Positions 1-17,300 of a stretch of DNA of 64,000 nt are shown one piece after another. Under the pieces are notes generated by a model. It had not been told where the DNA came from. It ran no database searches and worked only from the letters and a program-made list of their open reading frames with translations. Source of the DNA: a virus. Made by a program: the position numbers and the translations under genes. Position 1 is the first letter of the stretch, and each line of letters opens with the position of its first letter. The stretch covers positions 1-64,000 of IMG/VR virus record IMGVR_UViG_3300047564_003843; one strand, 5' to 3'.

Positions 1-843
1 TGGGACCTCTGGGGTGAGGTCATCTGCATTTGCAGCGGCGGTCACGGGTGCCTCCATTGTTTCCTGAACCACTACTGGTTCAATTGGTTGGGTTTCTTTG
101 ATTGATGCCTCTGCTGCATCTGCAACATCGGCGGCTGCGTCTGCTGCATCATCTGATGCTGCATCTGCAATTTCTGCTTCGGAAGCTTCTGCTTCCGCTG
201 GTGCATCTACTGATGCTTCAGCAGCTGGTGCTGCCTCTTCATCTGCTGATGCAGTTACTGGTGCCTCTGTAGCAACTGGTGCTACTTCAGCTGTCTCGGT
301 TGTGTCAGTTGAGAGCTCTGCGGTCTTATCCGCTTCGGTTGACGCTTCGGTCATGGCCTTTTTCTCCTCTTCCTTTTCTTTGTCTGCATCTGTTTCAGCA
401 ACAGGTGCTTCTTCAGCTGCAGGTGCGGATTCGGCAGGAGCAGCAGGAACTTCTTCAGCAATAGCTGGAGCTTCTTCCTTCTTCTCCTCTTCCATCACAG
501 GTGCTGCCATTTCAGTTGACTTTTCCATTTCGGTGTCATCATCTTTAGCTTCATCTGTTTCTGGCATTTCGCCATCTTCCTTCTTCATGTCGTCGCCGTA
601 CACACGGGACGCTGCCTCAGCGGCCCGCTGGGCGAGCTCCTGAACTGCGGCTTCGCGCTGCTTCAGTTCTGATTTAACAGAATCAAGCATGTCGGCAAGC
701 GACGTCATAGCGTCAACTGTTGCAGGAGTAGGCTCTTCTTTCTCAACCGATTCGAATTCGCTGATGATTGACTTTTGAAGCTCGGCGACTGAAGAGTCAT
801 CGAGATCAGCAAGTTGATCCATCATTTCTTTGATTCGGTCCAC
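1..843 (-). CDS. Probable major capsid protein, N-terminal acidic scaffold-like part (runs off the window edge)
   Basis: GTG at 843 follows AGGAGG. The frame is open to base 1 (MDRIKEMMDQLADLDDSSVAELQKSIISEF..., then E/A/P-rich). It lies downstream of portal and protease genes. It is missing from the ORF track because no stop is in the window. Confidence 0.6.
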   Translation of the reverse strand, partial: MDRIKEMMDQLADLDDSSVAELQKSIISEFESVEKEEPTPATVDAMTSLADMLDSVKSELKQREAAVQELAQRAAEAASRVYGDDMKKEDGEMPETDEAKDDDTEMEKSTEMAAPVMEEEKKEEAPAIAEEVPAAPAESAPAAEEAPVAETDADKEKEEEKKAMTEASTEADKTAELSTDTTETAEVAPVATEAPVTASADEEAAPAAEASVDAPAEAEASEAEIADAASDDAADAAADVADAAEASIKETQPIEPVVVQETMEAPVTAAANADDLTPEVP

Positions 844-1011
844 TGTCCCTCCTTGGGCAGTTGTGTAGAACAAAAATAGTTCTATCGCTGATTTAGTCGA
901 GGCCGAGGGACTCCGAGAGACGCAATGAATGCGTGGAGGCACTCCACCTGTTATAAATGGTACAACCATCTAAAACAAGTGATTGGACGGAAAACGAGGT
1001 GTTTCTGTCCT

Positions 1012-1734
1012 TTATGTTAAAAGTCTTAAAAGCTTCGCCATCTGTGAGGAAATCTCTGACTGGTTGTAGAGTTCACTACCAGACATAAACTTCTTAAGTT
1101 CTGCGGTTGCAATATCTGCGTCCTCATCGCCAATCTTGTCTTCAACCCGAGAGATCATGTCCTTCATAAGTTTGCGTAGGGCTGGAGGTACATCTGAGAA
1201 TCTAATTTTTTCAGCCTCTGCTCCAAAGGCAAATGGAAGGTTTGCAATAACCTTTCCAAGCTCCGCAGAACTGGTACGAATGTTCTCTAAAGCTTCAGGA
1301 TTAAGGGCTTTTGCGTCCAATCGGTCAATAATCCCGATAAGAGCATCTGCTGCTTTAGCAGCATTGCCATAATCTCCAGCATTGTCAAGGTTTTCAGCCT
1401 CTTCTACCTTGGAAATAACGCGGTCAAGACCAGCAGTTCCAAGGTCGGACTTCAAACGAGCAAGTACTTGACGGAACTTACCTGCAGCATCCCGAGGTTG
1501 AGTTTTAGGGGTGTACTTACCTCGTTCTTTTTCAGCTATATCTCTTGCTGTTTTTTCCAGTTTTAGAGCTTTAATCTCTTCTTCAGTTAAACCTTCTAAT
1601 GCTGGGTCTTCAGCAAAAAGTGCTTCTGATTTTTCAAATACAGCACTTTTTACTCCCCCAGCTGCTAATGCAGCCTGAGTAGAGGAGATAACTTCCCGCA
1701 TTCGAGAAGCGACATCGTCAGTGTTTGTAGTCAC
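1012..1734 (-). CDS. Head-associated helical protein with QPRDAAGKF motif
   Basis: 240-aa ORF between protease and capsid genes; shares the RDxxGxF motif with two upstream head proteins. Confidence 0.6.
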   Translation of the reverse strand: MTTNTDDVASRMREVISSTQAALAAGGVKSAVFEKSEALFAEDPALEGLTEEEIKALKLEKTARDIAEKERGKYTPKTQPRDAAGKFRQVLARLKSDLGTAGLDRVISKVEEAENLDNAGDYGNAAKAADALIGIIDRLDAKALNPEALENIRTSSAELGKVIANLPFAFGAEAEKIRFSDVPPALRKLMKDMISRVEDKIGDEDADIATAELKKFMSGSELYNQSEISSQMAKLLRLLT

Positions 1735-1736
1735 TA

Positions 1737-4700
1737 TTAGTCCTTTTTAGATTCAGTTGACTCTTTCGATTCAAGCACTGCGGCTGCAGCTAGAGCACGC
1801 TCTCTCATTGATGCGATTACAGAATCATCAATAGCAGCTGATTTCCACTTGTCTGGAATCATACCCTCTTTATTAAGGGCACGGGCACGCTTCATAATAT
1901 GCTTGCGAACAAGACCACGCTTACCAGCTTTTGCACGACCATAAGCCTGAATTGCGTTTCTCAAATCTCCAGAATTACGGATAGGAAATGAGCCATCGTC
2001 TAGAGCCTTACCTTCTTCGGCAAGCTTCTTACGTTGCTGGCGAGTAATAACAGCCATTTCTGACTCTGGGTCTTCGTCAAACATTTGAAGCATGTATTCA
2101 GATGCAGCATCTGCTTCTGCCTTTGCACCCGCAACGCGAGCAGAAAGGCTAGCCATTTTTTCAGCCATAGCTGCAGCTTGAGAAGCTTTATGAATACTCT
2201 CTAGAGCATCAATCTTGTAATTGATTTCGGCAATTGGGTCATGCTTCATTTGAGCAAGAACGTTTGCACCTGCTGCAACCAAAGCCATTACCTGACCTGA
2301 TGCAACACGAGCACGAGCAATTGGGAAGCCTGGAACGTTTACTTGGCAAACAGCAACCAGTTCAAGGTGTCCCTTGATTGGTCGCCAGTCACCTGATGGA
2401 GCTGATGCACGAGCGGCTCTGATTTGCTCGGGGGTTGTGCCAGGGCGTAGAGCACCTGAAACCCAAATTCCGTAAGCATCTTCACCTGCGTGCACGTCTG
2501 CGAATGCTGATGCAGTGTCATCATAATGACGCACTGCTTCTTCAGCAGAAGCCTCAAGACCAGCGTGACCGCCAGCCAAAGTTAGTTGACCAACTGGAAC
2601 ATCTTTACCTTCTGCGGTACGAATAATTCCAGTGTGGAAGTATGAATATTTAGAACGACTGCGTGGAGGACGAGTTCCAAACGCCATTCCAATGTGGTCT
2701 ACATGCCAAGCGGCAATGTGACCGAATACGCGACCTTCATCTGTGATGGTGAGTGGAGTCGCTTTATCAAGTTTCTGGTTTTCAAACCATTCTGCAGGAG
2801 GTTCTACAGGAATTGCACCCGCGACCATTCCGCAAGCAACAAGCGCTGATGCGTCTAGTGGGTTCACCCCATCTACATAAATACCATCTGGAACTGACAC
2901 AGCATCCTCCTCTAACTCGTTGCCATCATCAACGATTTGGATATAGCACTCTTGGAATGCTGGTTTTGGCACAATGGTGACAGCCATAATCCGAGCATTC
3001 TTGATTACTATTCTACCCGCCTCTACTTTACCTGAGTCTTCTGAAGCTTCCTCTTCGTCAGCTTCAAACATATCCATGTCAGCGGAAACTCCACGGATAA
3101 ACCCATTGCGAACAAGCCTTTCAGCTTCTTTTCCGTATTCGCCAGTATCAAAAACGCCAACGGCATTTCCAATTCCATCCCCGATGCGCTCCATATGAGT
3201 AATCTGTCCAACAACTACAGAGCCATCGTGACCTTGACCTGTCTTAATCTGCCAAAGTAATGGCAGAGGTAGGTCTCTCATAACTATTACACCTTTATCA
3301 AAGATGCGACCATCCCCAGATTCCTTATTTTCAGGAATAACTAGAGGTATTACAAATTTTGCTCCGTGCTCAACTGGCTTAGCGCCTTCGCGACCTGCAA
3401 ATTTAGCTTTAGCGGCTTCAGCACGAGCAGTCAAAGTAAATGAATCAATAATTTGCTCTTCAGAACGAAGTGCTTCAATACTGGAAACTAAAGACTTCTT
3501 CTTCATACCTGGATTGCGCTTATCTCCTGGCCACATACCAGTCATCTCTTTATGACGTAGTGCGCAGTAGCCCTTAGAACGTGGACCAAGATACTTAGAT
3601 AGATAACGGTGGCAACGAGTCCAGTCTCCTGGGGAGTTCCAACGAATCTTTAATCCGCCCTTGCCAACTGTCCAATAACGACGAAGTTTTTCTGCATTAC
3701 CGCGGTTTTGGTCAGCACCACCAGCGGCAGTGATTGGATTTAGACTCAAAGCCATTGCAATGTTTACATTTAAAGAAGCAACAATTCCACCATCAATTTG
3801 AGAAACAACATCAGCAAGTTGTTCTGTGCTTAGAACAATAGTTGGTGGAGGTGTTGGACTTTTTAGGTCAGCAAGAATTCTTTCATCGCGTTCCCATTTA
3901 CGATTACGACGTTTAAATGTTGCTGGTTGAGTTGTGTCTACACCTGCAGGAACTAGTGCAATTAACTCCATAACTGCAGCTGGATCATCCTCAGCGACAA
4001 TTGCAATGTACATAGGAGCAACGTCTGTTTTTTCAGGGGTAATCTCATAGTTAGGCTTTTTACCCTCAGCTGAAGAAATAATTGACATCTCAAGGTCTGG
4101 GTCAAACTTCTTCATGTAGTCCGCTGCGCTAATCTTTTTTACATCTTTTGCAGACTTTTTGCCCTCTACCTTAGGTCCAAGATTTCCATAAGGGCTACTT
4201 GGTTTGTACCAACCATCTCTGTGATAAGCAGTTTCAGGGTCAGCAGTTTTATTGTATTTCTTATCTAACCAACTACGAAGTAGTGGATTGTTATAAACAT
4301 TTTCTGTTGTAGCAGGATTCCAACCTGGTTTAGGGGTCCCGTCAGGATTAAATGAACCTGTGTAGTACTGACCAAGAACAGTGTTTGGGTCAAGTCGTGT
4401 ATCTACAGCAGGAGAAGTTCCAGCAGCTGGTGCTGGTGCACTTACAGGTTGCCCTGTGTATTCAGGAGTAACTCTTTGGTCTGCAACCCAACTTGTCCAG
4501 TCAGTAAGCATGACTTGAAGACTGTCTACTGTAAGAGGTGGTAGACGTCCTGGAAGTTTTGCTGTTGGCTCATCAATAGGAACTCGAGGCTCTCCAAGAA
4601 TTCCAGAGGTGTCTAATTCAAAACTAGGAAAACCTTGAACAGGAAGTGGTTGATAATCTTCTGCTAACTGAGTCTGATTTGCAGGAACAGCAACAACACT

Positions 4701-5942
4701 TCCACCTGGGAACTCTACGTTAGCTTCCTGAGTATCGGAATTAATAGAAAGAATTTTTCCTGTGTATTTAGGGTCGTTTCCAACAATGACAGTGCTTCCA
4801 GCTTTTGCAAATTTACCAAGCTGGTCTCGTACTTGTCGAGAAGCCTTCTCTGAACGCTCTTCTGGTGTGTAGTCACCGTCTTGATTTGTTGGAGCTTCAG
4901 TAGTTGGAGCACCTACAGCAAGAAGACCATCATCCCACTCATCTACTTCGTAAACATCATCTTCAGATAATTGGTCTAAGAAATTCCAGTCAATTTCAGG
5001 GATTGCTCTTTCAATTAAATCTGATTCATCAAAATCAATCATCTGCACCGATACTGGATTAAAAGGATTGTTATCCAGCATTGCAGAGATTTTTACTGCA
5101 GACTCACGGTCTACAGGAGTATGGATTTTTTGAACTTGGTCATATGGGTCATCAAGCGATTTGTCATATGTGATGAAGTCGTGTTCGATGTGACCCAAGT
5201 CTTCCCAGCAGCCGTCATCCCAAACGGTGCAATAACCTTCAATATCTACTTTATATAAACGATCAATTCCAGAACCGTCTAAACGAATACGAATATAAAA
5301 ATCTGGTTCATAATCTGACGGAGTGAATGCTGTGTAATCAATTCTTTGAATAGGCATGAACTCATCAATTGATGCAACAACTGAATTGTTTGAACGCTTT
5401 TTATTGTCGCGTTCTACTATTGCTGACGCCCACCTCTTGCCCGCGTCTCCACCCCAAAGAGCCCAAGCAATGCGACCGTTGCTGGGGTAATTCGCTTGAC
5501 CCGGTTTATAACCCTTGCCCTTTTTGTCAACTTCATGTCTTGGGAAGTACTTTGCAATGTGGCGGATTTTTGCGATGCCGATTTGGCCGCCGCCAGCAAG
5601 CGTGCGAGCGGTATTAAGCCCGACTGGTGTCCCTCCTCGTTTTTCTTCTCGTCTCCAAGCAAGACCTCTTTTAGCTTCTGCAATAACAGCATCAGGAATT
5701 GTGTACATGTTGCTGCTATCGCCATTACTTAAAACTTTAATATCTAGGTCAGTTACAGCAGCATTTGCAAGTTCAACAGAAGAGGCAACTGGCTTTTCAG
5801 CATAAGTGTCCCAATCTGCAGAAGCAAGCAACACTGAGCTACTGTCTACTCGAACAACAGTGTTTGTAGACTCGTCAATAACTGCTGCTAAGTTTTCGTT
5901 CGAAAATAGAACGTAGCTATCATTTCTACCTAGATATTGCAT
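1737..5942 (-). CDS. Prohead (capsid maturation) protease fusion protein, 1401 aa
   Basis: Protease core ESGDGRIF..LPLPLLWQ..GHDGSVVVGQI..GFIRGVSAD (His/Ser) and VFGHIAAWHVDHIG domain, as in actinophage cluster-B-type maturation proteases. Extra head-protein domains: RIAWALWGG, GNAEKLRRYW..GDWTRC..WPG, and C-terminal DGSFPIRNSGDLRNAI. Confidence 0.8.
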   Translation of the reverse strand: MQYLGRNDSYVLFSNENLAAVIDESTNTVVRVDSSSVLLASADWDTYAEKPVASSVELANAAVTDLDIKVLSNGDSSNMYTIPDAVIAEAKRGLAWRREEKRGGTPVGLNTARTLAGGGQIGIAKIRHIAKYFPRHEVDKKGKGYKPGQANYPSNGRIAWALWGGDAGKRWASAIVERDNKKRSNNSVVASIDEFMPIQRIDYTAFTPSDYEPDFYIRIRLDGSGIDRLYKVDIEGYCTVWDDGCWEDLGHIEHDFITYDKSLDDPYDQVQKIHTPVDRESAVKISAMLDNNPFNPVSVQMIDFDESDLIERAIPEIDWNFLDQLSEDDVYEVDEWDDGLLAVGAPTTEAPTNQDGDYTPEERSEKASRQVRDQLGKFAKAGSTVIVGNDPKYTGKILSINSDTQEANVEFPGGSVVAVPANQTQLAEDYQPLPVQGFPSFELDTSGILGEPRVPIDEPTAKLPGRLPPLTVDSLQVMLTDWTSWVADQRVTPEYTGQPVSAPAPAAGTSPAVDTRLDPNTVLGQYYTGSFNPDGTPKPGWNPATTENVYNNPLLRSWLDKKYNKTADPETAYHRDGWYKPSSPYGNLGPKVEGKKSAKDVKKISAADYMKKFDPDLEMSIISSAEGKKPNYEITPEKTDVAPMYIAIVAEDDPAAVMELIALVPAGVDTTQPATFKRRNRKWERDERILADLKSPTPPPTIVLSTEQLADVVSQIDGGIVASLNVNIAMALSLNPITAAGGADQNRGNAEKLRRYWTVGKGGLKIRWNSPGDWTRCHRYLSKYLGPRSKGYCALRHKEMTGMWPGDKRNPGMKKKSLVSSIEALRSEEQIIDSFTLTARAEAAKAKFAGREGAKPVEHGAKFVIPLVIPENKESGDGRIFDKGVIVMRDLPLPLLWQIKTGQGHDGSVVVGQITHMERIGDGIGNAVGVFDTGEYGKEAERLVRNGFIRGVSADMDMFEADEEEASEDSGKVEAGRIVIKNARIMAVTIVPKPAFQECYIQIVDDGNELEEDAVSVPDGIYVDGVNPLDASALVACGMVAGAIPVEPPAEWFENQKLDKATPLTITDEGRVFGHIAAWHVDHIGMAFGTRPPRSRSKYSYFHTGIIRTAEGKDVPVGQLTLAGGHAGLEASAEEAVRHYDDTASAFADVHAGEDAYGIWVSGALRPGTTPEQIRAARASAPSGDWRPIKGHLELVAVCQVNVPGFPIARARVASGQVMALVAAGANVLAQMKHDPIAEINYKIDALESIHKASQAAAMAEKMASLSARVAGAKAEADAASEYMLQMFDEDPESEMAVITRQQRKKLAEEGKALDDGSFPIRNSGDLRNAIQAYGRAKAGKRGLVRKHIMKRARALNKEGMIPDKWKSAAIDDSVIASMRERALAAAAVLESKESTESKKD

Positions 5943-5944
5943 TA

Positions 5945-6550
5945 TTATTCCTCTACCGCGTAATCTGCTAGGTCTGTTTTAGTGATCTTGTCACCAGCAT
6001 CCCAGCGGCTTACAAGGTCTGCTGATTTGTCATAGTCAATGTCTGTAATTTCTGAGCCGTCATATTCTTCAGACATTTCAGGAGTGGCAGGAGTCCACTT
6101 ACCATCTGTGCGGAAGAAAGTGCCAAGCCCAGTAACTGTGAAGACAACAGCTGTGACGTCGCCAGCATCGTTTGACAATGCCTCAACGGCTTGTTCTAAA
6201 CCGACTTGTTCGTCGATTGCCATCATTTCCTCCATCATTTGCGGGGTTAGAGTCAGTCCATAACCAGTTAGAAGCGCAGAGTCTTCCTCTGTGAACTTCC
6301 TGATTCGATAGGTACCGTCGAACGCAGCAAACTCAATTGTACCGTTGGTTTCCTTAACTAACTCTGGATCAACTGGGTAAAACATGCCGCGTCCTCCACG
6401 AACGAGGATGCCGCTATCGGCTTCATCGTCGTCTCCCTCATACACGAACTGAACTGCATCGAATATAGGGAATTTGATTTGGTCTTCTCCAGATAGTTTC
6501 TCGATAACTCCAGGAGTGCCAAAAATTACGTCTTCAGAGATAAGAGCCAT
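5945..6550 (-). CDS. Acidic hypothetical head-module protein
   Basis: 201-aa ORF translationally coupled to the 3133-aa gene. Confidence 0.6.
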   Translation of the reverse strand: MALISEDVIFGTPGVIEKLSGEDQIKFPIFDAVQFVYEGDDDEADSGILVRGGRGMFYPVDPELVKETNGTIEFAAFDGTYRIRKFTEEDSALLTGYGLTLTPQMMEEMMAIDEQVGLEQAVEALSNDAGDVTAVVFTVTGLGTFFRTDGKWTPATPEMSEEYDGSEITDIDYDKSADLVSRWDAGDKITKTDLADYAVEE

Positions 6551-9500
6551 TATTTCTTAGCCCCTTTCTTTTTCTTTTTACCAGCAACAATGTCTGCTAA
6601 ATCAGTCTTTCCTTCAGACATCAATCTTTCAATCAGCTTTTCTCTAATAGCTGTTGGCATTGATATGGAGGACAAGTCTGCCCAAGAGAGGTTCTTTTTA
6701 AACATCAACTCGCCGTAATTATTGCTTAAAGATTCAACAATGTCTTCCGAGTCAGATTGAAGCTGCCCATACTTATCAGAGTTGTTCTTGTAGTAGTCAA
6801 GACGACGAAGCACACTCTTAGAGTTAAAGTAGAAAGCTAGATTTGAAGAAGTGCTCGAGCCTTTTGATGATGGAGAGGCAAAAACGTAATTTCCTCCGTT
6901 GGCATCAATATCAGAAGAGGAGGACATTCCACTCTTGTTAATCCCATTCATCCAACGAGTAGCAGTTGCGTAGATTCCTCCAGATGTAATAACATCGTAG
7001 AACCAATCAACAGTGTTGGTTTGGTCTCCACCCTTCCAGTTATGAACAATGTGTGGAGAGAATCCTGTCTTCTCCATAAGCTTTTCTACAGCAGCCTCTG
7101 GCATATAATAATTAATACGTCCTCTAGCTAGAGGGTCTGCAACAATTTCAACATCATCTGCAGTAAATCCATACTCTTCTTTGATAATGTCTAAAGTCTT
7201 TTGACGAAGCTCTCCAGCGTAGTTCTTTTTGCCATCAGTTGCTGCACCAAGAAGCCAAATCATTTTGTTTTCAATAACACCTCGAACATCTGACTCAAGG
7301 GCAGGACGAACCTGTGAAATACCACCTAAAGAGTTTAAAGCTTCTGCAACATCTTCAGGAGTTGCATCTGCTGGCAGATAAATCTCTGCTTTGTTGTGAA
7401 ATGAAACAGCGTATGGACTACTACTGTGATACTTAAAGAAGTCGACCTCGGTGTCATCTATTGACTTAGATGCACGGTGAAGAAGGAAAGTTCCCTTTCC
7501 AGCAGGTCCTTCGAAAGTCACACCGTTCTTGTTTGAATCAACAGTGCTGGTATCCCAAGTGTCTTGCCAAACAACAGAACCGTCTGGTTGCTTTTTCCAT
7601 TTATCAAGTCTTAAAGCTTTGGTCTTTGTAATATTTGGGTCTGAGTCTGCTTTAGATGTTACTTGCTTTCCAGCCCAGCTTGTTAGAGTAAATTGCAGAC
7701 GAATTTTCTTTTGACCATCTTTGTCAGTAACCATACCAACGTGAACTTCTAAATCCTCAATTGAATCCGAGTCAAGCAGAGTAGTTGAACCGTTAGCAGC
7801 TTCCGCTGGGTTGTCATTATTTGCCATTTTAAGAGCATCTACTAAAGAAGGAACACTTGGGTGAGGAGATACAGAGTAGTCAGGGGCTGCATCTAAAGTT
7901 TGAATAGCAAAACCTGGACCATTAACTGTGAACTTATCTTTTAAAGCTTTTGCTTCAGCAGCTTGCTGAGCTTTCTTTAGCTTTTCGGCTTGTTGTTTAG
8001 CGTATAACTCACCCTTAGCTTTTGCAGCAGCCTTTGACTTATCAAATAGAGTTTGGTCAATTTCAATGTCTAATTCTTTTGCTTGCTCTGGAGTAATAAA
8101 CTTTTCACGGGACCAGATTTTGTCTGACTTTGTAGATTTTGTCTGTCCAGCTAAAGGACCATCAAAGTATGAAACCTCAATGTCACCAGTCTTTGCATCT
8201 TGCTTTGAGATAACTCCATAGCTAGTTAAATCTTGGTCTGAATCATTTGGGTTAGCGTTTTGGACCAAAATGCCAGGAGCCATGTTCTTAGAGTTAGGGT
8301 CTTTAATAAGTTCACCTTGCAAGAACTGCTTGTAATCGCTGTAATCGTTTGCACCATATGAAGCTAAATGACCAATAGAATTTTTATCTACTGCTTTTGC
8401 TTCTACATCTTTAATTGAAGTAGCACCTGCTAAATCCGCGCCTTCGTATTTAGGCAACTCAACTTTAGGCTCTGTGCTGTTTACTGGCGCAGGGCTGGAT
8501 GGAGTCTTAGGGGTTGTAGGTGTTCCTCCACCGCCACCAGTAGGTCCATCATCTTCTGGTTTATCTGGCTTTACTCCTGAGGTATCTTGAATATCTAGGT
8601 AGGTTGAAACCTTCCAATTCTTCTTTCCATCTTCCCATTGGACTTTTGCAACATCTGTATAAGTGTAACCCTGTGGGTTTGATTTGCTCTTAGATGTAAC
8701 AAGCTCATCCTTAAGAGATACAACCTTTCCAATCTTTCCAGTCTTGGTATCTTTGACAATCATTCCAACCTTAATTGGAGTCTTGCCATCAGCAGATACG
8801 TAAGCACCCTTCTTTGTAGGGATTGCAGAAGGTGCAATAGTTCCTGGAGTTTCTGGCTTAGATTTTGAGATAACTTTACTTGGAGTTATCTTTGCTTTCC
8901 ACTTTTCGTTCTCGATACGGCTTGAAAGAGCAGTGTATGAGTGCCAACGTCCTGCAAGAGTTTTAACTCTAGAAGTTCCGTCATTACCTTTGATTCGGTG
9001 ATAGACACTGAATGTATTATCAGCGTTGCGCTTAACCATTGTGTAAATAGTTGAGCCAGCTGGAGTTACATTCTCAGCAACAACAATGTCACCGTTTTCA
9101 AGTACAGAAATTCCCTTTTCATCTTTTACCTTTGCCCAAATCAAATCTGGGTCTAAAGGCTTCTTCAATTCTTCTGCAAGTGCTACAGGGTCAATTGGCG
9201 CTACTTCATCTTCTGGAGCAGCATCTTCATCTGGAGTTAGAGCTTGCGAAAGGTCAGATTGAATCTTTTCTTCTGGAGTTGCATCTGCAGGAGCAGATGG
9301 AGTGTTTATATCTTCAAGAATTGAATCAATCAGATCTGTGTTAGCACCATCTTGACCCTTTAAAGATTCAAGTAAGTCTTTTGTCTTACCCTTATTACCA
9401 AAAAGTTTTTCTGCAAGAGCAGAGACTTCATCAAGAACCTTTTGCTTCTCTGCTGGATCAATCTGAGCAGCCTCTGGAGCTTGTGGAAGTTCCTTCTCAG

Positions 9501-12500
9501 GTGTTGGAGCAGCCTCTGGTGCTTCTGAAGCAGTAGAACCGCTTTGCTCAAACTTAGAAAGGGTGTAATTCTTCTTTACACCATCTTCACCAATTGCTGA
9601 AAGGTTAATGTTGCCATTCTGTGGGTTCTTCCACACTCCCTTTGGAGTTACAACTCTTTCTTTTCCGTTGTATTTAAATGCAATCTTCTTTCCAGAAGCC
9701 TGAGCAGCAGAAATTTGTGCTTCGATATCACCAGAAGAATCAATAACAACAGTGTTACTGTCAACAACTGGCTTATCCTCTTCAACTGGTTCTTCAGCTG
9801 GCTTTTCACCCAAGAATCGATTAATTAAATACTCACGACGGGCTTTAAGAGTTTCTTTAAGTGAATCAGCAACTTCTGGGTCAGAGATAGCAGCATCTAC
9901 TATTTCATCAATCTTTTCTGGAGTTACTGCTTGAACTTTCTTTACGGACTCAGCAATCTCTTCATCACTCATGCTGCCAAACATTTCAACTGTAAGAGCA
10001 TTAGACATTGCCTTTGAACTACGCATTGAATCAATTTGCGTAGCTTCTGGTCCAAACTCTTTATCAGTTCCACCTTGAGCACGGAATAACAGAGAACCAC
10101 CAGCATCTACTCTGATTATGTTGTTATCAGAATCAACAAGTATGTTGTCGCCGCCAAGACCTGTTACATCATAATTTCCTACCCAAGCGTCAATTGCGAA
10201 GTCTTCTTGAACTTTCTTCTTCAGTTCTGATGATGGGCTTGTTCCTAAAATCTCACCTTGCTTAATTGGAGAAACAAGAACAGTGTTTCCGTTCTTATCT
10301 ACACCCTTATATGCACGACCGAAACTAACACCAGCCTCTTCGTAAAGAGCACCGCCTAATATTTCGTTCTCTGCATGTTTGTCAGACTTTGGCTTCTTAA
10401 CGTAATACTGATTTCCAGTATCTGGGTCTATATAGAATGCACCTTGGTTAGAACCAGCCTGTCCTGCAACTTTTTTCCACTTAGAGGTATCGAACACTGA
10501 AGAGACATCTTCAGGTGAAACTTCTTCTGCTGGAATTGGCTTATCTGTTTTAGCATCTTCATCTTCAAGGTTGCTAACGATATTAGGGAAAGAATCTGCA
10601 AAGTCTGAATGCAACATACCTGCATCAGACATTTTGTTAATCTGATCTCCAGTAAACCAACCAGTTGCAGTGTTCTCTCCATCCTTTGATGAAAGATCGT
10701 TGTACTGATCTGGTCCTACTTCAAAGACAGAAGTTTCGTATGCCCATTCAGCGCCGACTTTGTTTGTGTCAACGTAGATTGGCTCGAGTGCAGAGATGTC
10801 TCCGCCAACTTCTTCCATAAACTCTTCTTTTGCAGTTGCATTAGGAGCCTTAGCAATTGTTTGGTCTTTATGGGCTCCTCCAGGGATTCCCCACTTACCG
10901 CCACCTTGTGACAAAGAACTAGAACGCTTTGCAAGGAAGTATTCGTACTCTCCATCTGCATTCTTACGACGAATAAGAGCACCACCAGCACCATACTTGC
11001 CCCAGAAGCGCTTACCATCTGTAGTAAAGAAGTAGCCTTCACCAGTCTCTTGATTATTTCCGCCACCAAGAGGTGCAAAGAATGGAAGCTTAGGAGGAGT
11101 AAGAGTTCCAGCCTTTAGAGCTTGAACATCTGCAGCAGAAATATTTTCTGCGTAGAAGACGCCATCAGTTCCTTCTGCAATTGTGTAGTCATTCCACTTA
11201 CCAGCGTTTGCTTCCTTTTCAGGAGCTTCATCAATCTCAAGTTGTGGTTGTTCTAATTCTGGCTCTGGTGCAGGAACAGCTTCTGGCTCACCGTTGCGAC
11301 GCCATACTTCGTAAGCTTGATACTTAACCCAAGCAGATTCATACTCTTTTCCATTTGCAAGAAGTCTGCGCTTAACAAGTACACGCTTGTCGTCGCCTTC
11401 AATTGGGGTAATAGAAATAATTTCGTGGAATCCATCGTGCTTTGCCTTGATGAAGTCGCCTGGTTGCCACTCTTCAACAGCAATTGCTCCAACATTTGTT
11501 GTGTTCTCTGGGTCAGATACCCAGTTGTTGGATACGTTTCCGCCCAAGACTGATTCGACTTGAAAGTCTCCATCTGAAAGTTCGGTTGGCTTTGCAGAAG
11601 TAGATGGTGAAACTTCGTCTGAAGTTGGCTTGTCTTTTGGCATAGCCTTGACAAGAGCATCGGTTTCTGGAACATCTTTTCCAGCCATACCATCTGCAAA
11701 AGTCTTTGACATAACAAGTTCGGAGTCTGCTTTGCTCTTTCCAGACTTGTATGCGTCGTACTCTGCTTTTGCCTTGTCATAATCTGCAGAAGACTTCTCA
11801 AGGTCAAGAACATCGATACCAGACTTAGTAACAGCCATCTCATCCAAGAGATTGTTAAGAATTCCAGGCAATACAGCAACGTCAACAGAAGCATCGTGCC
11901 AATCAGTGTTTGGCTCAGCAAGTCCATAACGATTTGCTACAGCCTCAAGCTTGTGGTCTCCTGCGCTTCCATTAATAACCTTGCGAGCAAGTGAGAGTGT
12001 GTCAATCTCGCCAGCTGGTTTGTAATCAAGTCCATACTCGGCCATCTTGCGACGAAGGATTTCTCCATCAAATGGCATGTTGTGTGCAGAAACAATTGGG
12101 TCTGCACCAAGGAAGTCAGAGATTTCTTTAAATGCATCTGCTTGCGACATCTGCTTAGACAAGAACTCATCAGAGATTGGGTTTCCATCTGAGTCTTTAA
12201 GAACTTCTGAAGGGTCTTTGTCAGTATAGAAAGAGTCAAGTGGTTGTTCTGGGTTCATGAAGAGAGTCTTCTCTTCAATGATTTCACCATTCTTAACCTT
12301 GGTCATTGAAACTTGAATTGGGCTTGGAGATGTAAATCCTCCAGTGCTCTCAAAGTCAAGGTGAACTACTTCTTCATTAGCAAGAAGTTCTTTAAATTTA
12401 ACTGGGTCACCATTTGCTTCAGCAGCAATTGCCTTGAGCTTATCTCCCATAAATGCAGGAGGTGTTGGGCGTGAGACCTTCTTTGGCTTAGGTGGAAGTG

Positions 12501-15500
12501 CATCTACATCAATTGGAGGAGTAAATGTTGCAGCAGACTCTTTCTTTGCTGCATTGAACTCTGCATACTTCTCTTTGTATGCAGGGTCATCCTTCTTTGG
12601 ACGCTCGAGTGCTGGCTTCTTGCCTGGTTCTGGTAAATCAGATGCACCACGAATTACTTCGATAGGAGTGGTGCCCTTCCAAGTCTTTGTTTGAGACTGG
12701 TGACCTGGATAGTAACCTGTAACGACAGCATTACCAGTTTCATCAGTTGTTACATCTTGGACAATGAAATACTCGTAGAAGTCATTCTTTCCTTCTTTCT
12801 TGAAGGCAATGTCTCCTGGTTTTACTTCAGTTGCTCCAACCCCAACAACACCGACAGGTTTGCTTGGTGTGTAAACAGGAGCTTCAGATTCAGAAACCCA
12901 CTCTTCTAATCCTTCAGGAGCAGACCACATTTCTTTAGCTTGAGCAAGTTCTTCGTTGTATTTTTCAAAATCTGCTAAATATTGTTTTTGTGCAGCAGCA
13001 TCTTTAGGAACCCAAACTCCTTCAGGGTTCTTGTAAACCTTACCTTCAGGGTCATACTCTTTTGCCTTTGGTTTTGAAAGCACAGGCAAGTCACCCTTTG
13101 TTGGAGCATCTACATTTCTAAAGACAGAAATGTCAGTATCGTTGTTCCACAACTTAGTCTTTTGTGAGACGTGACCTGGATAGTAACCAGTAACCCATGA
13201 CTTACCTGGGAACTCAGAAGGTTCTACAGACTCAATTGTGAAGAAGTCATTTGTTGTGACATCTCCTGCTTTAAGTTCAGTAGTTTTAGCCTTTAACTTT
13301 GCTGGTCCTGTTGGTTCTCCAACTGCAACTCCGTCAACGGCTTCGGGTCCCTTTTCATCCGACGGAGCTTGTTCCGTGGTTTCGGTAGGCGCTTCTTGGG
13401 CAGGTTCTGGTGTGATTTCTTCTGTATCAGGTGCTTCTCCTTCTAGAGCGTCATTAATTTGCTCAGGAGTCAGTGCGTCTTCTTCTTGACCAGCGAAACC
13501 TTCATCATAGATTTCTTTGGTCAAAGCATTGGTGTCTTCACCTTGTAATTGCAGCGCATCACGAATTGCTTCGCCTGGAACATACGCTGAATACTCTTCA
13601 CCATCGTCGGTTTGTGTGCCAAGCATTCCATAACCAGGCATTTCATTTCCTGGCTCAAGAGCACGACGCAATTCGCCCTTCAAATCTTCCGTGTCGTAGT
13701 AATTAGCAATATCAACAGGGTCGTAATTAAATCCTTCAGGTGCATCTTCAGGAATTACGTATTGGTCTTTATCAAATGCTTCTGGAGAAAGCTCTGCGTA
13801 ATCTTCTGGAACATCAAAGGTGTCATTCTTTGGAAGATATTGCTTATACTCACCAGTCTTGGCGTAGTTATCCTTCTCATCGTCAGACAAACCTTCAAGA
13901 AGTGTAGGAAGCTCTGTTGGGTCTCCGCCTTCCATTTCTGGCACTTCTGGTAAGTCTTTACCAAGTTCATCTTTAACTTCATCAGAAACTTCTGGAGTTG
14001 CATCTTTCTTTCCATAAATACCATCAAGAATTGCATCAGCATCTTCACCCTGCTCTTTAAGAGCGTTGTAAATTGCTTCTGCTGGAACAATTTCATCTCC
14101 ATCTTCAAATGGCAAAGTTCCATAACCAGTTGCAGGAGATTTTTCTGTTCCCTTAACACCATCTTCTAGAGATTTCTCAAGAGTTGGAGTATCAAACTTC
14201 TGTGCAAGCTCTGCTGGGTCATCTGTAAAGTCAGAAGCTTCTTGTCCATCAATAGGGCCTTCAGGTGTGTATTCACCGCGGTCTACGTTGTAGTAACCAG
14301 GAGTTGGCTCAGCTGGTTTTTTACCGCTATCTTTTATTTGTTCAGGAAGATTTAATTTTGGTCCTACATCTAATTTTGCTTTTACTGCTGGCTCTTCTGT
14401 AGGAGCTTGTCCAGACGCATCGCGTTCTAACTCTCCAGTTTCAGCGTCAACTACAGAACCATCAGGAAGAAGAATGTGGTCCTTACTTGGGTCAAGTGGG
14501 AATAGCCCACCGTTTTCTTCGTAGTCCTTTAGATTCTTCTTATACTCTTTCATATTCTTCTTAAGGTTCTTCTTTGAAACCTTAGGAATTAATTCACCCT
14601 GAACTTCTGATGCAGGAGTTTCTTCTGGAGTATCTGGAGTTGGTTCTTCTCCTCCCTCATCTAGCATCTTTGCTGGATTTGGAAGTTCGCCCTTCTCAAA
14701 ATTAGGTTCGTCTTGTGAAATGTAATCTTGAACATCAGACCAACGCTGTGCAACAGCAAAAGGCTTGCTGTCATCTTCACCACGGCGAGATACAAAGTAA
14801 ACAGGAAGATTTGGGTCTAATGAACCATTCTTTCCTGCTCCTTCAGTAACAACATTCTGTCCTTCACCCTCGCGTTGCTGCGCTGCTTCAAACTTATCTT
14901 TTGCAGCAGCATTAGGTGTAGAAATTTTAATAACATCGTATGCATCATCTGTGTACTTAGTTCCAAGGTCAATCTTGGTTCCGTAATACTCTTTATCAAC
15001 GTCACTTGGAGACCAGCTCTCATCTTTACTAAATCCAGCAGGTGCATCAATCTTTACAAGATCAGCTTCCTCGATAACTGGGTCACCAGTTTTTACCTTT
15101 GCTGCAGTCTTGCTGTATCCATCTGGACCCTGAGCAGACTTAAGAATTGCCTTAACACCTTCAGCAGACTTTGCAGGGACGCGAACTAAATCACCATTTG
15201 GTAATTCCATATCGAAGGTATCGCTACCTTCATCAGTTGCTACAGCACGACCACTAAGAGATTGAACTGCTCCACTAATACGACGAATAAGTGCACGTAG
15301 ACCGCCACCCATCTCAGCAAAGCGACCCTTACGGTCACGGCGCTGACGCATAGCACGAGCACGACGGGCTGCAGGAGAGTTTCCATCTCCTAGAGCAGCA
15401 AGAAGTGCATACTGAGGCACAGAGCCTTGAGGCATTGATTGCAAGCGAGCAATAGAGTATTCATACTCAGGTGAAGCTGGATGTGCTGTTAAAGCAGAAG

Positions 15501-15951
15501 AAAGAATTGAACGAACAGTATCGTCTTGAATATTTGGGTCATCAATAATCCAACGAGCACGGTGCTTCATTACCTCTGCAGCGCTGAGCTCATGCTTGCG
15601 AGTTGAACGTGGGTGTGAAATAGGAAGTAAGTCTGTATTTTCAGGAGAGACGGAAAAAACCTTGTTGTACTGAGCAAGTTGGATATAACCATTAAGCTCT
15701 TTTAAAGTGCGCATACGGCGCAGCGAATAAGTTTCGTTCTCATACTTAGATAAGCAACGAGTCATAACAGACTTAGCGGCTCTACGAGTAATAAGTCTTG
15801 AACCAGAGAATTTAGTGTTTGCAGATTTAACTATGTCAAAACCTGCTTCTAGGATTCTTTCATTCTGTTGTTCTAGAGAAAGAGTCTTAACTTTCTTCTT
15901 TGCAATAGCAATAGCAGCTTGCTGCTTAGGTGTCTTTGAATACTTGGCCAT
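6550..15951 (-). CDS. Giant polyvalent virion protein (DEDDh exonuclease + MutT3-like Nudix + HipA/PI-kinase-like + WYL + putative ADP-ribosyltransferase, with SH3-like repeats)
   Basis: DEDDh: HLDFESTG/AHNMPFD/HDASVD. Nudix: RFWGKYGAGG..WGIPGG..EEFMEEVG. Kinase-like: GSNQG..YYVK..NE..NYDV..DNIL..RVDAG. WYL: KIAFKYNGKERVVTP. ART-like: IVH..GGIYAT..NYVF..GELMFK. Confidence 0.75.
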   Translation of the reverse strand: MAKYSKTPKQQAAIAIAKKKVKTLSLEQQNERILEAGFDIVKSANTKFSGSRLITRRAAKSVMTRCLSKYENETYSLRRMRTLKELNGYIQLAQYNKVFSVSPENTDLLPISHPRSTRKHELSAAEVMKHRARWIIDDPNIQDDTVRSILSSALTAHPASPEYEYSIARLQSMPQGSVPQYALLAALGDGNSPAARRARAMRQRRDRKGRFAEMGGGLRALIRRISGAVQSLSGRAVATDEGSDTFDMELPNGDLVRVPAKSAEGVKAILKSAQGPDGYSKTAAKVKTGDPVIEEADLVKIDAPAGFSKDESWSPSDVDKEYYGTKIDLGTKYTDDAYDVIKISTPNAAAKDKFEAAQQREGEGQNVVTEGAGKNGSLDPNLPVYFVSRRGEDDSKPFAVAQRWSDVQDYISQDEPNFEKGELPNPAKMLDEGGEEPTPDTPEETPASEVQGELIPKVSKKNLKKNMKEYKKNLKDYEENGGLFPLDPSKDHILLPDGSVVDAETGELERDASGQAPTEEPAVKAKLDVGPKLNLPEQIKDSGKKPAEPTPGYYNVDRGEYTPEGPIDGQEASDFTDDPAELAQKFDTPTLEKSLEDGVKGTEKSPATGYGTLPFEDGDEIVPAEAIYNALKEQGEDADAILDGIYGKKDATPEVSDEVKDELGKDLPEVPEMEGGDPTELPTLLEGLSDDEKDNYAKTGEYKQYLPKNDTFDVPEDYAELSPEAFDKDQYVIPEDAPEGFNYDPVDIANYYDTEDLKGELRRALEPGNEMPGYGMLGTQTDDGEEYSAYVPGEAIRDALQLQGEDTNALTKEIYDEGFAGQEEDALTPEQINDALEGEAPDTEEITPEPAQEAPTETTEQAPSDEKGPEAVDGVAVGEPTGPAKLKAKTTELKAGDVTTNDFFTIESVEPSEFPGKSWVTGYYPGHVSQKTKLWNNDTDISVFRNVDAPTKGDLPVLSKPKAKEYDPEGKVYKNPEGVWVPKDAAAQKQYLADFEKYNEELAQAKEMWSAPEGLEEWVSESEAPVYTPSKPVGVVGVGATEVKPGDIAFKKEGKNDFYEYFIVQDVTTDETGNAVVTGYYPGHQSQTKTWKGTTPIEVIRGASDLPEPGKKPALERPKKDDPAYKEKYAEFNAAKKESAATFTPPIDVDALPPKPKKVSRPTPPAFMGDKLKAIAAEANGDPVKFKELLANEEVVHLDFESTGGFTSPSPIQVSMTKVKNGEIIEEKTLFMNPEQPLDSFYTDKDPSEVLKDSDGNPISDEFLSKQMSQADAFKEISDFLGADPIVSAHNMPFDGEILRRKMAEYGLDYKPAGEIDTLSLARKVINGSAGDHKLEAVANRYGLAEPNTDWHDASVDVAVLPGILNNLLDEMAVTKSGIDVLDLEKSSADYDKAKAEYDAYKSGKSKADSELVMSKTFADGMAGKDVPETDALVKAMPKDKPTSDEVSPSTSAKPTELSDGDFQVESVLGGNVSNNWVSDPENTTNVGAIAVEEWQPGDFIKAKHDGFHEIISITPIEGDDKRVLVKRRLLANGKEYESAWVKYQAYEVWRRNGEPEAVPAPEPELEQPQLEIDEAPEKEANAGKWNDYTIAEGTDGVFYAENISAADVQALKAGTLTPPKLPFFAPLGGGNNQETGEGYFFTTDGKRFWGKYGAGGALIRRKNADGEYEYFLAKRSSSLSQGGGKWGIPGGAHKDQTIAKAPNATAKEEFMEEVGGDISALEPIYVDTNKVGAEWAYETSVFEVGPDQYNDLSSKDGENTATGWFTGDQINKMSDAGMLHSDFADSFPNIVSNLEDEDAKTDKPIPAEEVSPEDVSSVFDTSKWKKVAGQAGSNQGAFYIDPDTGNQYYVKKPKSDKHAENEILGGALYEEAGVSFGRAYKGVDKNGNTVLVSPIKQGEILGTSPSSELKKKVQEDFAIDAWVGNYDVTGLGGDNILVDSDNNIIRVDAGGSLLFRAQGGTDKEFGPEATQIDSMRSSKAMSNALTVEMFGSMSDEEIAESVKKVQAVTPEKIDEIVDAAISDPEVADSLKETLKARREYLINRFLGEKPAEEPVEEDKPVVDSNTVVIDSSGDIEAQISAAQASGKKIAFKYNGKERVVTPKGVWKNPQNGNINLSAIGEDGVKKNYTLSKFEQSGSTASEAPEAAPTPEKELPQAPEAAQIDPAEKQKVLDEVSALAEKLFGNKGKTKDLLESLKGQDGANTDLIDSILEDINTPSAPADATPEEKIQSDLSQALTPDEDAAPEDEVAPIDPVALAEELKKPLDPDLIWAKVKDEKGISVLENGDIVVAENVTPAGSTIYTMVKRNADNTFSVYHRIKGNDGTSRVKTLAGRWHSYTALSSRIENEKWKAKITPSKVISKSKPETPGTIAPSAIPTKKGAYVSADGKTPIKVGMIVKDTKTGKIGKVVSLKDELVTSKSKSNPQGYTYTDVAKVQWEDGKKNWKVSTYLDIQDTSGVKPDKPEDDGPTGGGGGTPTTPKTPSSPAPVNSTEPKVELPKYEGADLAGATSIKDVEAKAVDKNSIGHLASYGANDYSDYKQFLQGELIKDPNSKNMAPGILVQNANPNDSDQDLTSYGVISKQDAKTGDIEVSYFDGPLAGQTKSTKSDKIWSREKFITPEQAKELDIEIDQTLFDKSKAAAKAKGELYAKQQAEKLKKAQQAAEAKALKDKFTVNGPGFAIQTLDAAPDYSVSPHPSVPSLVDALKMANNDNPAEAANGSTTLLDSDSIEDLEVHVGMVTDKDGQKKIRLQFTLTSWAGKQVTSKADSDPNITKTKALRLDKWKKQPDGSVVWQDTWDTSTVDSNKNGVTFEGPAGKGTFLLHRASKSIDDTEVDFFKYHSSSPYAVSFHNKAEIYLPADATPEDVAEALNSLGGISQVRPALESDVRGVIENKMIWLLGAATDGKKNYAGELRQKTLDIIKEEYGFTADDVEIVADPLARGRINYYMPEAAVEKLMEKTGFSPHIVHNWKGGDQTNTVDWFYDVITSGGIYATATRWMNGINKSGMSSSSDIDANGGNYVFASPSSKGSSTSSNLAFYFNSKSVLRRLDYYKNNSDKYGQLQSDSEDIVESLSNNYGELMFKKNLSWADLSSISMPTAIREKLIERLMSEGKTDLADIVAGKKKKKGAKK

Positions 15952-15953
15952 TG

Positions 15954-17300
15954 CTAGCTCTTCCTTTTCGGCAGAAGGTCGGAATCCATGCTGTCGTATG
16001 TCATTGTTGCAAGAACAGCTGCTCGCTTAAATGGGTTTTCATTGTTGCGAACTGCACGAAGCCAAGATGCACGGAATGCAGACTCTGCTTCATAACCTAG
16101 ACCTGCAAATTCTGTCATAGCAAAGATTGCTTGTTCTGGAGTTTCATAATCTAACTCGGACTTCAACTCAACATTAAGTTCTGCATCTGCTTCAGCGGAT
16201 GCAAGTAAAAGCTCAAGGTCTTCTTCATCGCGAACAGGAACGTCATAACCTGACACTGCACCCTCTGGTAGAACAGCAAAGCGGCATTTGCCATCTGCTT
16301 CAACCTCAAGGGAGATAATCTGGCACTTATTTGGGCCTTGGAAAAATACGCAGTTTGAACACTTAACTCCGATGTCTTTAACTTCGTTCTCATAAGCAGG
16401 TGTGTAACCAGCCCACACTCCGTCACCATCTTGGTCAAATGGTCCATGCTTTCGAGTAATTGCAATAAGCGCATCTGCTAAATCTTGCTCTTCTGGAATT
16501 AAACCTGAAGCGATAATTGTAGAAGCGTTCTTCTTTGAAGAACGTGGGTGTGCTGCTGGTAGTAAATCGTTATCTGCTTTGTATGCAGAGTTCTTTGGCT
16601 TGCCAGACTTAAGTAGGCGCAAGAATGCATTTACACGACCCATTGCCCATTGGTTGCGAGTCATTCCTGGACGATGTGAAACAGAGTAGGCACCAGCACC
16701 ACGGCGATATACAGCTTTTAGGGTTGAGACAGAAGTCTTGCGACCTTTTGGAGCTTTCTCATTGTGCTCTTCTACCTTCTTGCGAAGAGACGATTCAATT
16801 GCTGGAGTAAAAGTGATTTTCTTTCCACCTGAAGCTGAGCCTTTTGAATTCTTGTCAGAACCTTTGACACGGTCTTTCTTTGGTGCAGGTGTTTGAGAGA
16901 TTGTTTTTTTCTTTTTTGTTGCAGAAGCTGTTACAGGACCACCAGAAACCCAAGCGCGGCAAGTCCTAGCACTAGCGCACTTAAAATCAAACGCTTCGCA
17001 ATATCCGAGGTCACCAGCTTCTTGAATTGAATCGTATTTATCATTTTGTTCTCCTGTGAGTCCACTGGCAATGCAGTCCAGCATCTCTGGAGTCTGAATA
17101 AAGACAGCACAGTTACCACAACGTTGTTTCTTTGCTGTCTCAGCGTCTACTTGCCATTCGTCAGCAAGTGCTTGCCAATACTCATCGTTTGGTTCTGTTG
17201 GATTAAGTGGACCGTACATTGCAGTATCAATTGCTTTTTTACGGTTATCAAGATTAAGAGCAACATCTTGTGTTGCAGGGGGGCAAGTTTCTTCAGCCAT
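15954..17300 (-). CDS. Cys-rich multi-domain head-module protein (two HiPIP-like CxxC..C..C domains and a DLLPxxHPRS domain)
   Basis: RCGNCAVF..GYCEAFDFKCASARTCRAW; LKAVYRRGAGAY..QWAMGRVNAF..DNDLLPAAHPRS; KCSNCVFFQGPNKCQ..GKCRF. Confidence 0.6.
   Translation of the reverse strand: MAEETCPPATQDVALNLDNRKKAIDTAMYGPLNPTEPNDEYWQALADEWQVDAETAKKQRCGNCAVFIQTPEMLDCIASGLTGEQNDKYDSIQEAGDLGYCEAFDFKCASARTCRAWVSGGPVTASATKKKKTISQTPAPKKDRVKGSDKNSKGSASGGKKITFTPAIESSLRKKVEEHNEKAPKGRKTSVSTLKAVYRRGAGAYSVSHRPGMTRNQWAMGRVNAFLRLLKSGKPKNSAYKADNDLLPAAHPRSSKKNASTIIASGLIPEEQDLADALIAITRKHGPFDQDGDGVWAGYTPAYENEVKDIGVKCSNCVFFQGPNKCQIISLEVEADGKCRFAVLPEGAVSGYDVPVRDEEDLELLLASAEADAELNVELKSELDYETPEQAIFAMTEFAGLGYEAESAFRASWLRAVRNNENPFKRAAVLATMTYDSMDSDLLPKRKS

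Follow-up and report, generated by a model that had tools for sequence, protein, structure and literature searches.

What could a giant multidomain protein, a prohead protease polyprotein, and a small scaffold-like protein have in common that all three should carry the same nine-residue pattern? The question is raised by the window analyzed here, the first 64 kb (64,000 nucleotides) of a single 160,704-bp virus record (IMG/VR record IMGVR_UViG_3300047564_003843). Its head genes lie on the minus strand and encode, in order, the portal, a 448-residue protein, the giant protein (P0003), a 201-residue protein, the protease polyprotein (P0002), the scaffold-like protein (P0001), and the major capsid protein. 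A preliminary description of this DNA had noticed a peptide of the form QxRDxxG[KR]F in each of P0001, P0002, and P0003 and had proposed a sorting signal for capsid cargo. All three peptides are present on the minus strand (Table 1).

Scaffold and protease act only in the procapsid, and cargo is enclosed at that stage. Thus, procapsid assembly and maturation are the sole steps common to the three carriers. The reading that we favor, tentatively and at somewhat less than an even chance, is that the motif forms a hairpin that serves as a procapsid-incorporation tag, binding a common site in the head interior.

Results

The motif exceeds chance expectation and is restricted to head genes

Given the amino acid composition of the phage itself, its proteome of 43,063 residues should contain the pattern Q.RD..G[KR]F 0.0012 times, and shuffled proteomes (n = 2000) contain it 0.0015 times on average. 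It is observed three times. The looser RD..G[KRQ][FW] has four matches against an expectation of 0.055–0.066, the fourth being a nonconserved match in the tape measure protein.

The protease domain, used as a query against IMG/VR, recovered 296 relatives, from which 80 loci were kept; related portal loci in the same database number at least 584. The strict pattern RD..G[KRQ][FW] occurs 161 times in the 80 loci, every time on the head-gene strand, and has zero matches in their opposite-strand open reading frames (358,254 residues). The preliminary description had suggested comparing head-module proteins with others across related phages, and the expected enrichment is there: when five complete related genomes of 127–186 kb were scanned with a DNA pattern for R-D-x-x-G-x-(F/W), all in-frame F/W matches fell in head-module genes, two to four per genome, with none elsewhere. 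In the relative with just two matches, the polyprotein copy is the variant QVRNKLGMF.

The matches form three position-specific classes. Class A lies at about residue 365–420 of the protease polyprotein and reads YTPEERSxxAxxQ[VL]RDxxG[KR]FAxxG; class B lies 160 residues before the end of the scaffold domain and reads KYTPxTQPRDxxGKFRxVLARLK; class C lies at about residue 200 of the giant protein and reads GNSxxxRxxRAxxQ[RW]RDRxGR[FW]xxxGxG. Because lineages that fail the strict pattern keep QVRNKNGEF or QVRDKSGMF at the equivalent place, we take the core to be QxR[DN]xxGx[FW]. When classes A and C are aligned together, Q, R, D, and G are invariant and F/W nearly so. In class B, Q, P, R, D, G, and F are invariant across 23 scaffold sequences, and distant protease-scaffold polyproteins retain HPRDxxG[RK]F despite diverged flanks. 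The copies also open conserved blocks, as had been suggested: tblastn homology of P0001 to relatives begins at query residues 52–78, and at exactly 78, the first residue of the tag, for the closest relative; a linker precedes the module of P0002, and a conserved N-domain precedes that of P0003. All orthologs that were inspected keep the motif, both in the 80 loci and in Microbacterium and Arthrobacter phages. Among cultured phages, tblastn with class A, class B, and W-type queries recovered relatives of 129–195 kb: Actinomycetia phage DSL-LC01, four Arthrobacter phages, and seven Microbacterium phage records. The class C segment (P0003:179-299) gave no match there.

One might object that a motif drawn post hoc from so few short peptides (three) reflects no more than coincidence. 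The excess over expectation, the conservation at fixed positions in the 80 loci and in 136 of the 150 best clusters of a wider search (below), and the absence of matches outside the head modules of five genomes all speak against this. Coincidence has practically no probability left, and the conservation data already refute it.

Two further sets of matches were considered and set aside as members of the family, neither being kept across the lineage. The sole other RD..G[KR]F in a real open reading frame of the genome is FIRDPFGKF in the tape measure gene (G000:C1:127887-127907, minus strand; gene 126501-130241). The tape measure genes of DSL-LC01 and Cece lack it, so it is probably due to chance. 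In some relatives, an HK97 gp10-like protein of 133–149 residues, encoded about 8 kb downstream of the protease, has a tag-like RDSRGQF[VK]xIGS (Table 1); the gp10-like gene of the present genome has no in-frame match to the tag.

Two of the three carriers share a homologous module

The preliminary description held the three carriers to be otherwise unrelated. This is true of the scaffold, which has just the hairpin and a YTP in common with the others, but not of P0002 and P0003, which share a homologous module of about 80 residues. In profile-profile comparison (hhalign), the class A and class C regions match over 79 columns with 98% probability (E = 2.5e-13), and the module is the only region common to the polyprotein and the giant proteins. 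Class B matches class A over 28 columns (E = 1e-4), comprising the hairpin and the upstream YTP; its match to class C, over 14 columns, is not significant.

The AlphaFold2 (AF2) model of the module consists of a helix, a hairpin in which DxxG forms the turn and R27 and F33 take part in bridges, and five strands, with a predicted local distance difference test (pLDDT) score of 76–86 over model residues 21–80. In Foldseek searches, the predicted barrel resembles Tudor and KOW domains with a template modeling (TM) score of about 0.7 by target, at an E value of just ~1e-2, and the KOW motif of ribosomal protein L24 aligns weakly from the tag F onward (hidden Markov model (HMM) E = 0.09–0.6). Pfam matches of the module to KOW, Tudor, Myosin_N, and RimP SH3 all fall below the cut-off, and no Pfam family covers the module or the motif flanks. 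Neither a feature search of the ESM Atlas nor fold searches of BFVD and the atlas returned anything beyond generic small-barrel matches. In class B, the tag F begins a helix, and the motif is disordered in the AF2 monomer model. Thus, the same nine-residue pattern stands before a barrel in one context and before a helix in another, which points to a role in recognition rather than one that is purely fold-specific.

An alternative is that the hairpin is mainly structural. It would cap a KOW/Tudor-like barrel that binds nucleic acid or protein after ejection or in the filled head, and the scaffold copy would be the remnant of an internal duplication. The tag F and the following G do align with the first strand of the L24 KOW motif, and the barrels that match it in fold (Tudor, KOW, and SH3-like) have RNA or peptides as ligands. 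Moreover, the class C helix is very basic (AARRARAMRQRRDRKGRF), and nearly the same hairpin is found in a tail hub protein that is unrelated (see Discussion). However, the scaffold copy has no barrel, yet it is invariant in the 23 sequences and kept in distant lineages, which makes a remnant hard to sustain. No such basic character is seen in classes A and B, and restriction to the head interior is not something that a structural element predicts. DNA binding, for its part, is excluded as the shared role, since by the time of DNA entry the scaffold and protease have left or been degraded. We consider this structural explanation doubtful.

After the class A barrel, nearly all polyproteins have a second strongly conserved element, LDTSGILGEPR[VT]PIDxPxAxLPG (positions 4572-4601, minus strand; P0002 residues ~448-470). 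This peptide is found nowhere else in the genome.

The module is widespread and portable

A search of 1.84 billion cluster representatives with a profile of the module returned 432 clusters at E ≤ 1e-3 and 117 at E ≤ 1e-10. The core motif is present in 136 of the best 150 of the 432 clusters, and 70 of these 150 are proteins of 2000 to 5693 residues. Seventeen polyproteins have both an A and a B copy, among them distant ones in which B reads HPRDxxG[RK]F.

In several proteins the module lies at the extreme N-terminus: Cece gp68, WJZ48507 of DSL-LC01 (467 residues), P0131, P0073, and P0142. The last of these, of 346 residues, is made up of the module and an ADP-ribosyltransferase domain (ADPrib_exo_Tox, 4.5e-16), and its gene comes directly after the portal gene and before that of the protease polyprotein. 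P0008 has two modules, at its N-terminus and at residue 868, together with a 2H phosphoesterase domain. A 5.8-kb metagenome contig (L108; 524-1564, 2094-4859) encodes, in this order, a portal, a 346-residue fusion of module and ADP-ribosyltransferase, a 921-residue protein, and the N-domain of a protease polyprotein; the 921-residue protein contains small barrels without the hairpin.

The gene for P0003 occupies the slot between the portal and the protease/scaffold genes, as MuF genes do, and its relatives carry variable effectors. A six-frame search of the whole 160.7-kb record for MuF (PF04233) gave no match at E ≤ 0.01, and a Pfam scan of P0003 found just RNase_T.

The carriers are a scaffold-like protein, a protease polyprotein, and a giant multidomain protein

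P0001 is all-helical in its AF2 model. In most relatives, the counterpart of its conserved domain (residue 78 to the end) forms the C-terminal part of a fused protease polyprotein, and in Cece the homology to P0001 falls within the C-terminal part of gp70, annotated as a capsid maturation protease. In the phage of the window and a few others, the scaffold domain is a separate gene. A programmed frameshift joining P0002 to P0001 was considered and rejected: there is no sign of one, and the junction (AAGGA, TAA, then GTG) is that of ordinary coupling.

P0002 therefore has no fused scaffold domain in this phage, the gene being split. It consists of an N-domain, the tag module, a middle region, and a prohead protease domain (residues 854-1287; nt 2082-3383) that matches phrog_859 (4.7e-91) and phrog_18402, head maturation protease (3.5e-56). 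The Pfam Peptidase_S78 match is below threshold (18.6 bits against a cut-off of 21), so the assignment to the prohead proteases rests on the PHROGs. Lacking a fused scaffold, P0002 shares only the module with the other head-interior proteins, which makes the module a candidate means of its incorporation.

In P0003, the sole confidently recognized domain is a DEDDh exonuclease at residues 1196-1360 (RNase_T, 7.8e-12; phrog_192, 1.9e-23); a NUDIX match is weak (E = 0.2).

Small-residue islands are candidate maturation sites

The preliminary description placed a small-residue motif upstream of each copy. Such a motif is statistically real for two of the classes: 32 of 46 class A modules and 70 of 82 class C modules have [ILVM][TILV]A[ASG] no more than 45 residues upstream, against a background of about 10%, the modules counted being phylogenetically non-independent; in class B it is present in just 4 of 15. 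At the class A site, relatives have ITAAG or ITAAV, and in class C both alanines of ALLAAL are invariant in the alignment. Similar islands occur elsewhere in the head proteins. In the major capsid protein, MEAPVTA[AS]A and, downstream of it, VAITAGADIPG are nearly invariant in 66 orthologs (MEASVTAAA in one locus, VTITAGADIPG in three) and lie after a variable acidic linker of about 250 residues, just before the HK97-type core. In the portal island, which lies past a variable N-terminus, T69, A70, and A72 are invariant in 33 portals. Within the polyprotein, the position of PITAA, ahead of the NRGNAEKLRRYW domain, is held by VAAAGG in DSL-LC01 and LVAAGG in Cece.

The upstream motif thus resembles the conserved ΦTA[AS] islands of capsid and portal, which suggests that the islands, and not the hairpin, are the likelier protease sites. 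Herpesvirus assemblin cuts similar hydrophobic-x-Ala sites. We infer that the small-residue islands, rather than the hairpin, are probably where maturation occurs. Cleavage at the hairpin itself was considered and seems less likely, as capsid and portal have conserved islands without it. The linked islands also offer an initial idea of which sequences this protease family prefers.

The same observations bear on a different explanation, in which the hairpin is a recognition element of the prohead protease, either an exosite or a cleavage site, that directs processing and is dispensable for incorporation. All three carriers belong to classes that are usually cut by prohead proteases; such cleavage is established for the T4, HK97, lambda, and herpesvirus assemblin systems. 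In fused polyproteins, two copies flank the protease, which recalls the two related sites of herpesvirus protease-scaffold precursors. In addition, a small-residue site lies 10–45 residues upstream in 70–85% of the class A and C modules, where an exosite could position it. But the capsid and portal islands have no hairpin, and the protease therefore needs none at those putative sites. The class A and C motif, moreover, is modeled within a folded domain (pLDDT ~80), which would make a poor scissile site, and natively N-terminal modules have little or nothing upstream to remove. Thus, a role as a protease element seems unlikely.

Gene layout and the end of the record

Coordinates of the features discussed here are collected in Table 1. 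The 448-residue protein matches DUF5824 (4.6e-09) and has a Cys-rich segment weakly resembling high potential iron-sulfur proteins (HiPIP); in DSL-LC01, a gene annotated as a high potential iron-sulfur protein precedes the protease gene instead. A metal-cluster protein within a head module is unusual.

The end of the record (G000:C1:136445-160704, ~24 kb) repeats window positions 1-24059 in the same order at 80–85% nucleotide identity, and the giant gene diverges even further between the two copies. This looks like a genome of about 136 kb that was assembled past its end into a related strain (chimeric or permuted), not a true terminal repeat. The second copy of the major capsid protein (L107:995-3115, minus strand) has 706 residues, with an N-terminal extension of about 330: a helical, delta-like part of about 80 residues is followed by about 250 residues of acidic, low-complexity sequence rich in Glu, Ala, Pro, and Thr, and these precede the islands and the HK97-type core.

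Table 1. Positions of the tags, modules, small-residue islands, and head genes (window coordinates unless a locus is given)
Feature	Position (nt)	Strand	Remarks
Class B tag, TQPRDAAGKF	1471-1500	-	P0001 residues 78-87; runs directly into helix RQVLARLK
Class A tag, RQVRDQLGKF	4809-4838	-	P0002 residues 369-378
Class C tag, RQRRDRKGRF	15319-15348	-	P0003 residues 202-211
Class A module	4635..4886	-	P0002 residues 353-436; predicted helix, hairpin, five-strand KOW/Tudor-like barrel
Class C module	15118..15396	-	P0003 residues 186-278; predicted basic helix AARRARAM, hairpin, Gly-rich turn, barrel
ALAAG, upstream of class B tag	1657..1671	-	P0001 residues 22-26
LLAVG, upstream of class A module	4911..4925	-	
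ALLAAL, 16 residues upstream of class C hairpin	15391..15408	-	P0003 residues 182-187
PITAA (PITAAGG) in polyprotein	3723..3737	-	Candidate maturation cleavage site
PVTAA in N-terminal extension of major capsid protein	34..48	-	Within MEAPVTA[AS]A
(M/L)TAAA island in portal	18869-18883	-	Residues 68-72
PVTAS island in 448-residue protein			Residues 122-126
P0001, 240 residues, scaffold-like	1012..1734	-	Between protease and major capsid genes
P0002, 1401-residue protease polyprotein	1737..5942	-	phrog_859, phrog_18402
P0003, 3133 residues, multidomain	6550..15951	-	Portal-to-protease slot; Pfam RNase_T, phrog_192
448-residue protein	15954..17300	-	Adjoins portal and giant protein genes; DUF5824, Cys-rich HiPIP-like segment
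Portal protein, 594 residues	17300..19084	-	phrog_776, 1.2e-108
Major capsid gene	969..1	-	Start at 969, continues past window start; HK97-type core
gp10-like genes with RDSRGQF	L041:18216, L058:18670, L062:14915, L065:13686, L079:18340		

Discussion

In the mechanism that we propose for this lineage of large actinobacterial siphophages, QxR[DN]xxGx[F/W] would form a short β-hairpin with a DxxG turn that marks proteins destined for the procapsid. In the polyprotein and the cargo, the hairpin would be the front of a portable module of about 80 residues, and in the scaffold the same hairpin would stand ahead of the first helix. At procapsid assembly it could bind a common interior site, for which scaffold core, portal, and the inner surface of the capsid protein shell are candidates. 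Cargo and protease would thereby co-assemble with the scaffold, and the hairpin would take over the role held elsewhere by the MuF domain or the T4 capsid-targeting sequence (CTS). The prohead protease would then probably cut at a hydrophobic-T/V/L/I-A-A/S site a few to a few dozen residues upstream. After such a cut, the mature cargo would carry the module close to its new N-terminus, much as small effectors natively do.

We favor an incorporation tag because the module is portable and is fused to single effectors, because MuF was not found, because the hairpin occurs in two structural contexts, and because the split polyprotein shares only the module with its neighbors. Carried further, the proposal is of a portable encapsidation tag, an N-terminally extended KOW/Tudor-like module whose hairpin mimics that of the scaffold. 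Standing in for MuF, it would bring ADP-ribosyltransferases and multi-enzyme proteins of as many as 5.7 thousand residues into the procapsid together with the assembling scaffold. This fuller version we regard as a possibility to be taken seriously, though distinctly short of an even chance. A prediction of the complex between portal (alignment A5) and module (alignment A4), run without controls, scored 0.00 ("no answer") and carries no weight either way.

Several observations weigh against an incorporation tag. First, the carriers are typical protease substrates, and a role in proteolysis fits their distribution equally well. Second, in classes A and C the G-x-F lies within the first barrel strand, so that part of the conservation may be structural. 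Third, class C can have W while the A and B copies of the same phage have F, and the residue before F, usually basic, can be M, E, or Q; with such variability, a single rigid receptor pocket is not obvious. Finally, the baseplate hubs of the Agrobacterium phages Milano (8FQC chain C1, gp26, residues 77-95) and 7-7-1 (9RKU chain Af, residues 80-96) contain the peptide Q[NP]RDASGRFA[FY]SGG, a counterpart of the tag together with the Gly-rich stretch that follows it (E = 0.01–0.03 against the PDB), in proteins that are not head proteins. This may be convergence on a stable hairpin, but a peptide so nearly identical tempers any claim of head specificity beyond the present lineage.

The cargo signal of the preliminary description thus survives in part: the motif is real, head-specific, and deeply conserved, it lies downstream of a cleavage-like site, and it is natively N-terminal on single effectors in some relatives, as would suit a cargo tag that comes to lie at or close to an N-terminus. 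Docking onto DNA, which had been among its suggested functions, does not survive. As a function shared by all carriers it is unlikely, and we reject it as the common role, because the head is still without DNA when scaffold and protease act. The analogy that had been drawn to the T4 CTS and to encapsulin cargo peptides is apt at the level of function. Structurally it falls short, as the present element is a hairpin, and in two of three carriers part of a module, rather than a 10-residue terminal peptide, and is probably retained.

How does this element relate to known systems? Our search of the literature on the motif, on capsid-targeting and ejection-protein motifs, on the relatives, on the packaging of polyvalent proteins, and on actinophage targeting signals found no description of it. 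In function it resembles MuF and the T4 CTS, yet it is a member of neither class. As with MuF and SPP1 gp7, the gene lies between portal and protease/scaffold, and a conserved N-terminal module is followed by variable effectors (ADP-ribosyltransferase and 2H phosphoesterase in relatives, a DEDDh exonuclease here) in proteins presumed to be packaged and injected. Unlike in MuF systems, PF04233 is undetected, the module is a hairpin with a KOW/Tudor-like barrel of about 80 residues, and the tag motif recurs in the scaffold and the protease polyprotein. As with the T4 CTS of IPI-III and Alt, a short signal on unrelated head-interior proteins lies near prohead-protease sites (candidate ones here) and would load injected enzymes, including an ADP-ribosyltransferase. 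The T4 CTS, however, comprises about 10 residues at the N-terminus and is removed at an LxE site, whereas the present motif is internal in the three window proteins and has no sequence similarity to it. Lying downstream of the candidate cleavage sites, it would probably be retained.

Herpesvirus and phage protease-scaffold pairs offer a second set of parallels. Most relatives have the protease fused ahead of a C-terminal scaffold domain, as in herpes simplex virus (HSV) UL26/UL26.5, lambda C/Nu3, and P2 gpO. The class B copy may recall the portal-incorporation motif of the HSV-1 scaffold, a conserved short motif N-terminal of the scaffold domain and distinct from its C-terminal amphipathic helix, and the candidate sites, hydrophobic-x-Ala/Ser, are of the herpesvirus type. 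The polyproteins here are far larger (1400–1900 residues): they have additional domains at the N-terminus and contain the motif once more. Encapsulin cargo peptides and the C-terminal targeting tail of the HK97 protease are likewise short peptides that load an HK97-fold shell. These are C-terminal, extended, and of another consensus (hydrophobic, of Gly-Ser-Leu type, in the encapsulin case), unlike a hairpin that is N-terminal or internal and reads QxR[DN]xxGx[FW]. The KOW, Tudor, and SH3 barrels (L24, NusG/Spt5 KOW, PHF1/PHF19 Tudor) would share five strands, a similar size, and F-x-x-G-x-x-V-x-I-G-G with the module as modeled, but these families have no QxRDxxG extension, and all matches here are below threshold (Foldseek E ~1e-2, HMM E ~0.1). 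Lastly, polyvalent proteins unite a number of unrelated effector or enzyme domains in a single polypeptide whose gene accompanies those of the virion (Iyer et al. 2017, PMC5512222). P0003 is encoded in such a head-module context with one above-threshold enzyme domain, and its module-bearing relatives include ADP-ribosyltransferase and 2H phosphoesterase proteins.

To our knowledge, the way in which phages choose the proteins that they enclose and inject has been detailed for few models, namely the T4 CTS, the scaffold-dependent ejection proteins of P22, SPP1 gp7/MuF, and the HK97 protease. For a large and mostly uncultured lineage, the motif described here provides a concrete, mutable, sequence-defined candidate signal, and the cultured Microbacterium and Arthrobacter members make the tag hypothesis directly testable. 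If the hypothesis is true, it would explain how proteins from 2,000 to more than 5,000 residues are recruited without MuF. The module would then mark injected effectors, making them recognizable from sequence alone, and it would provide a handle for packaging foreign proteins in capsids.

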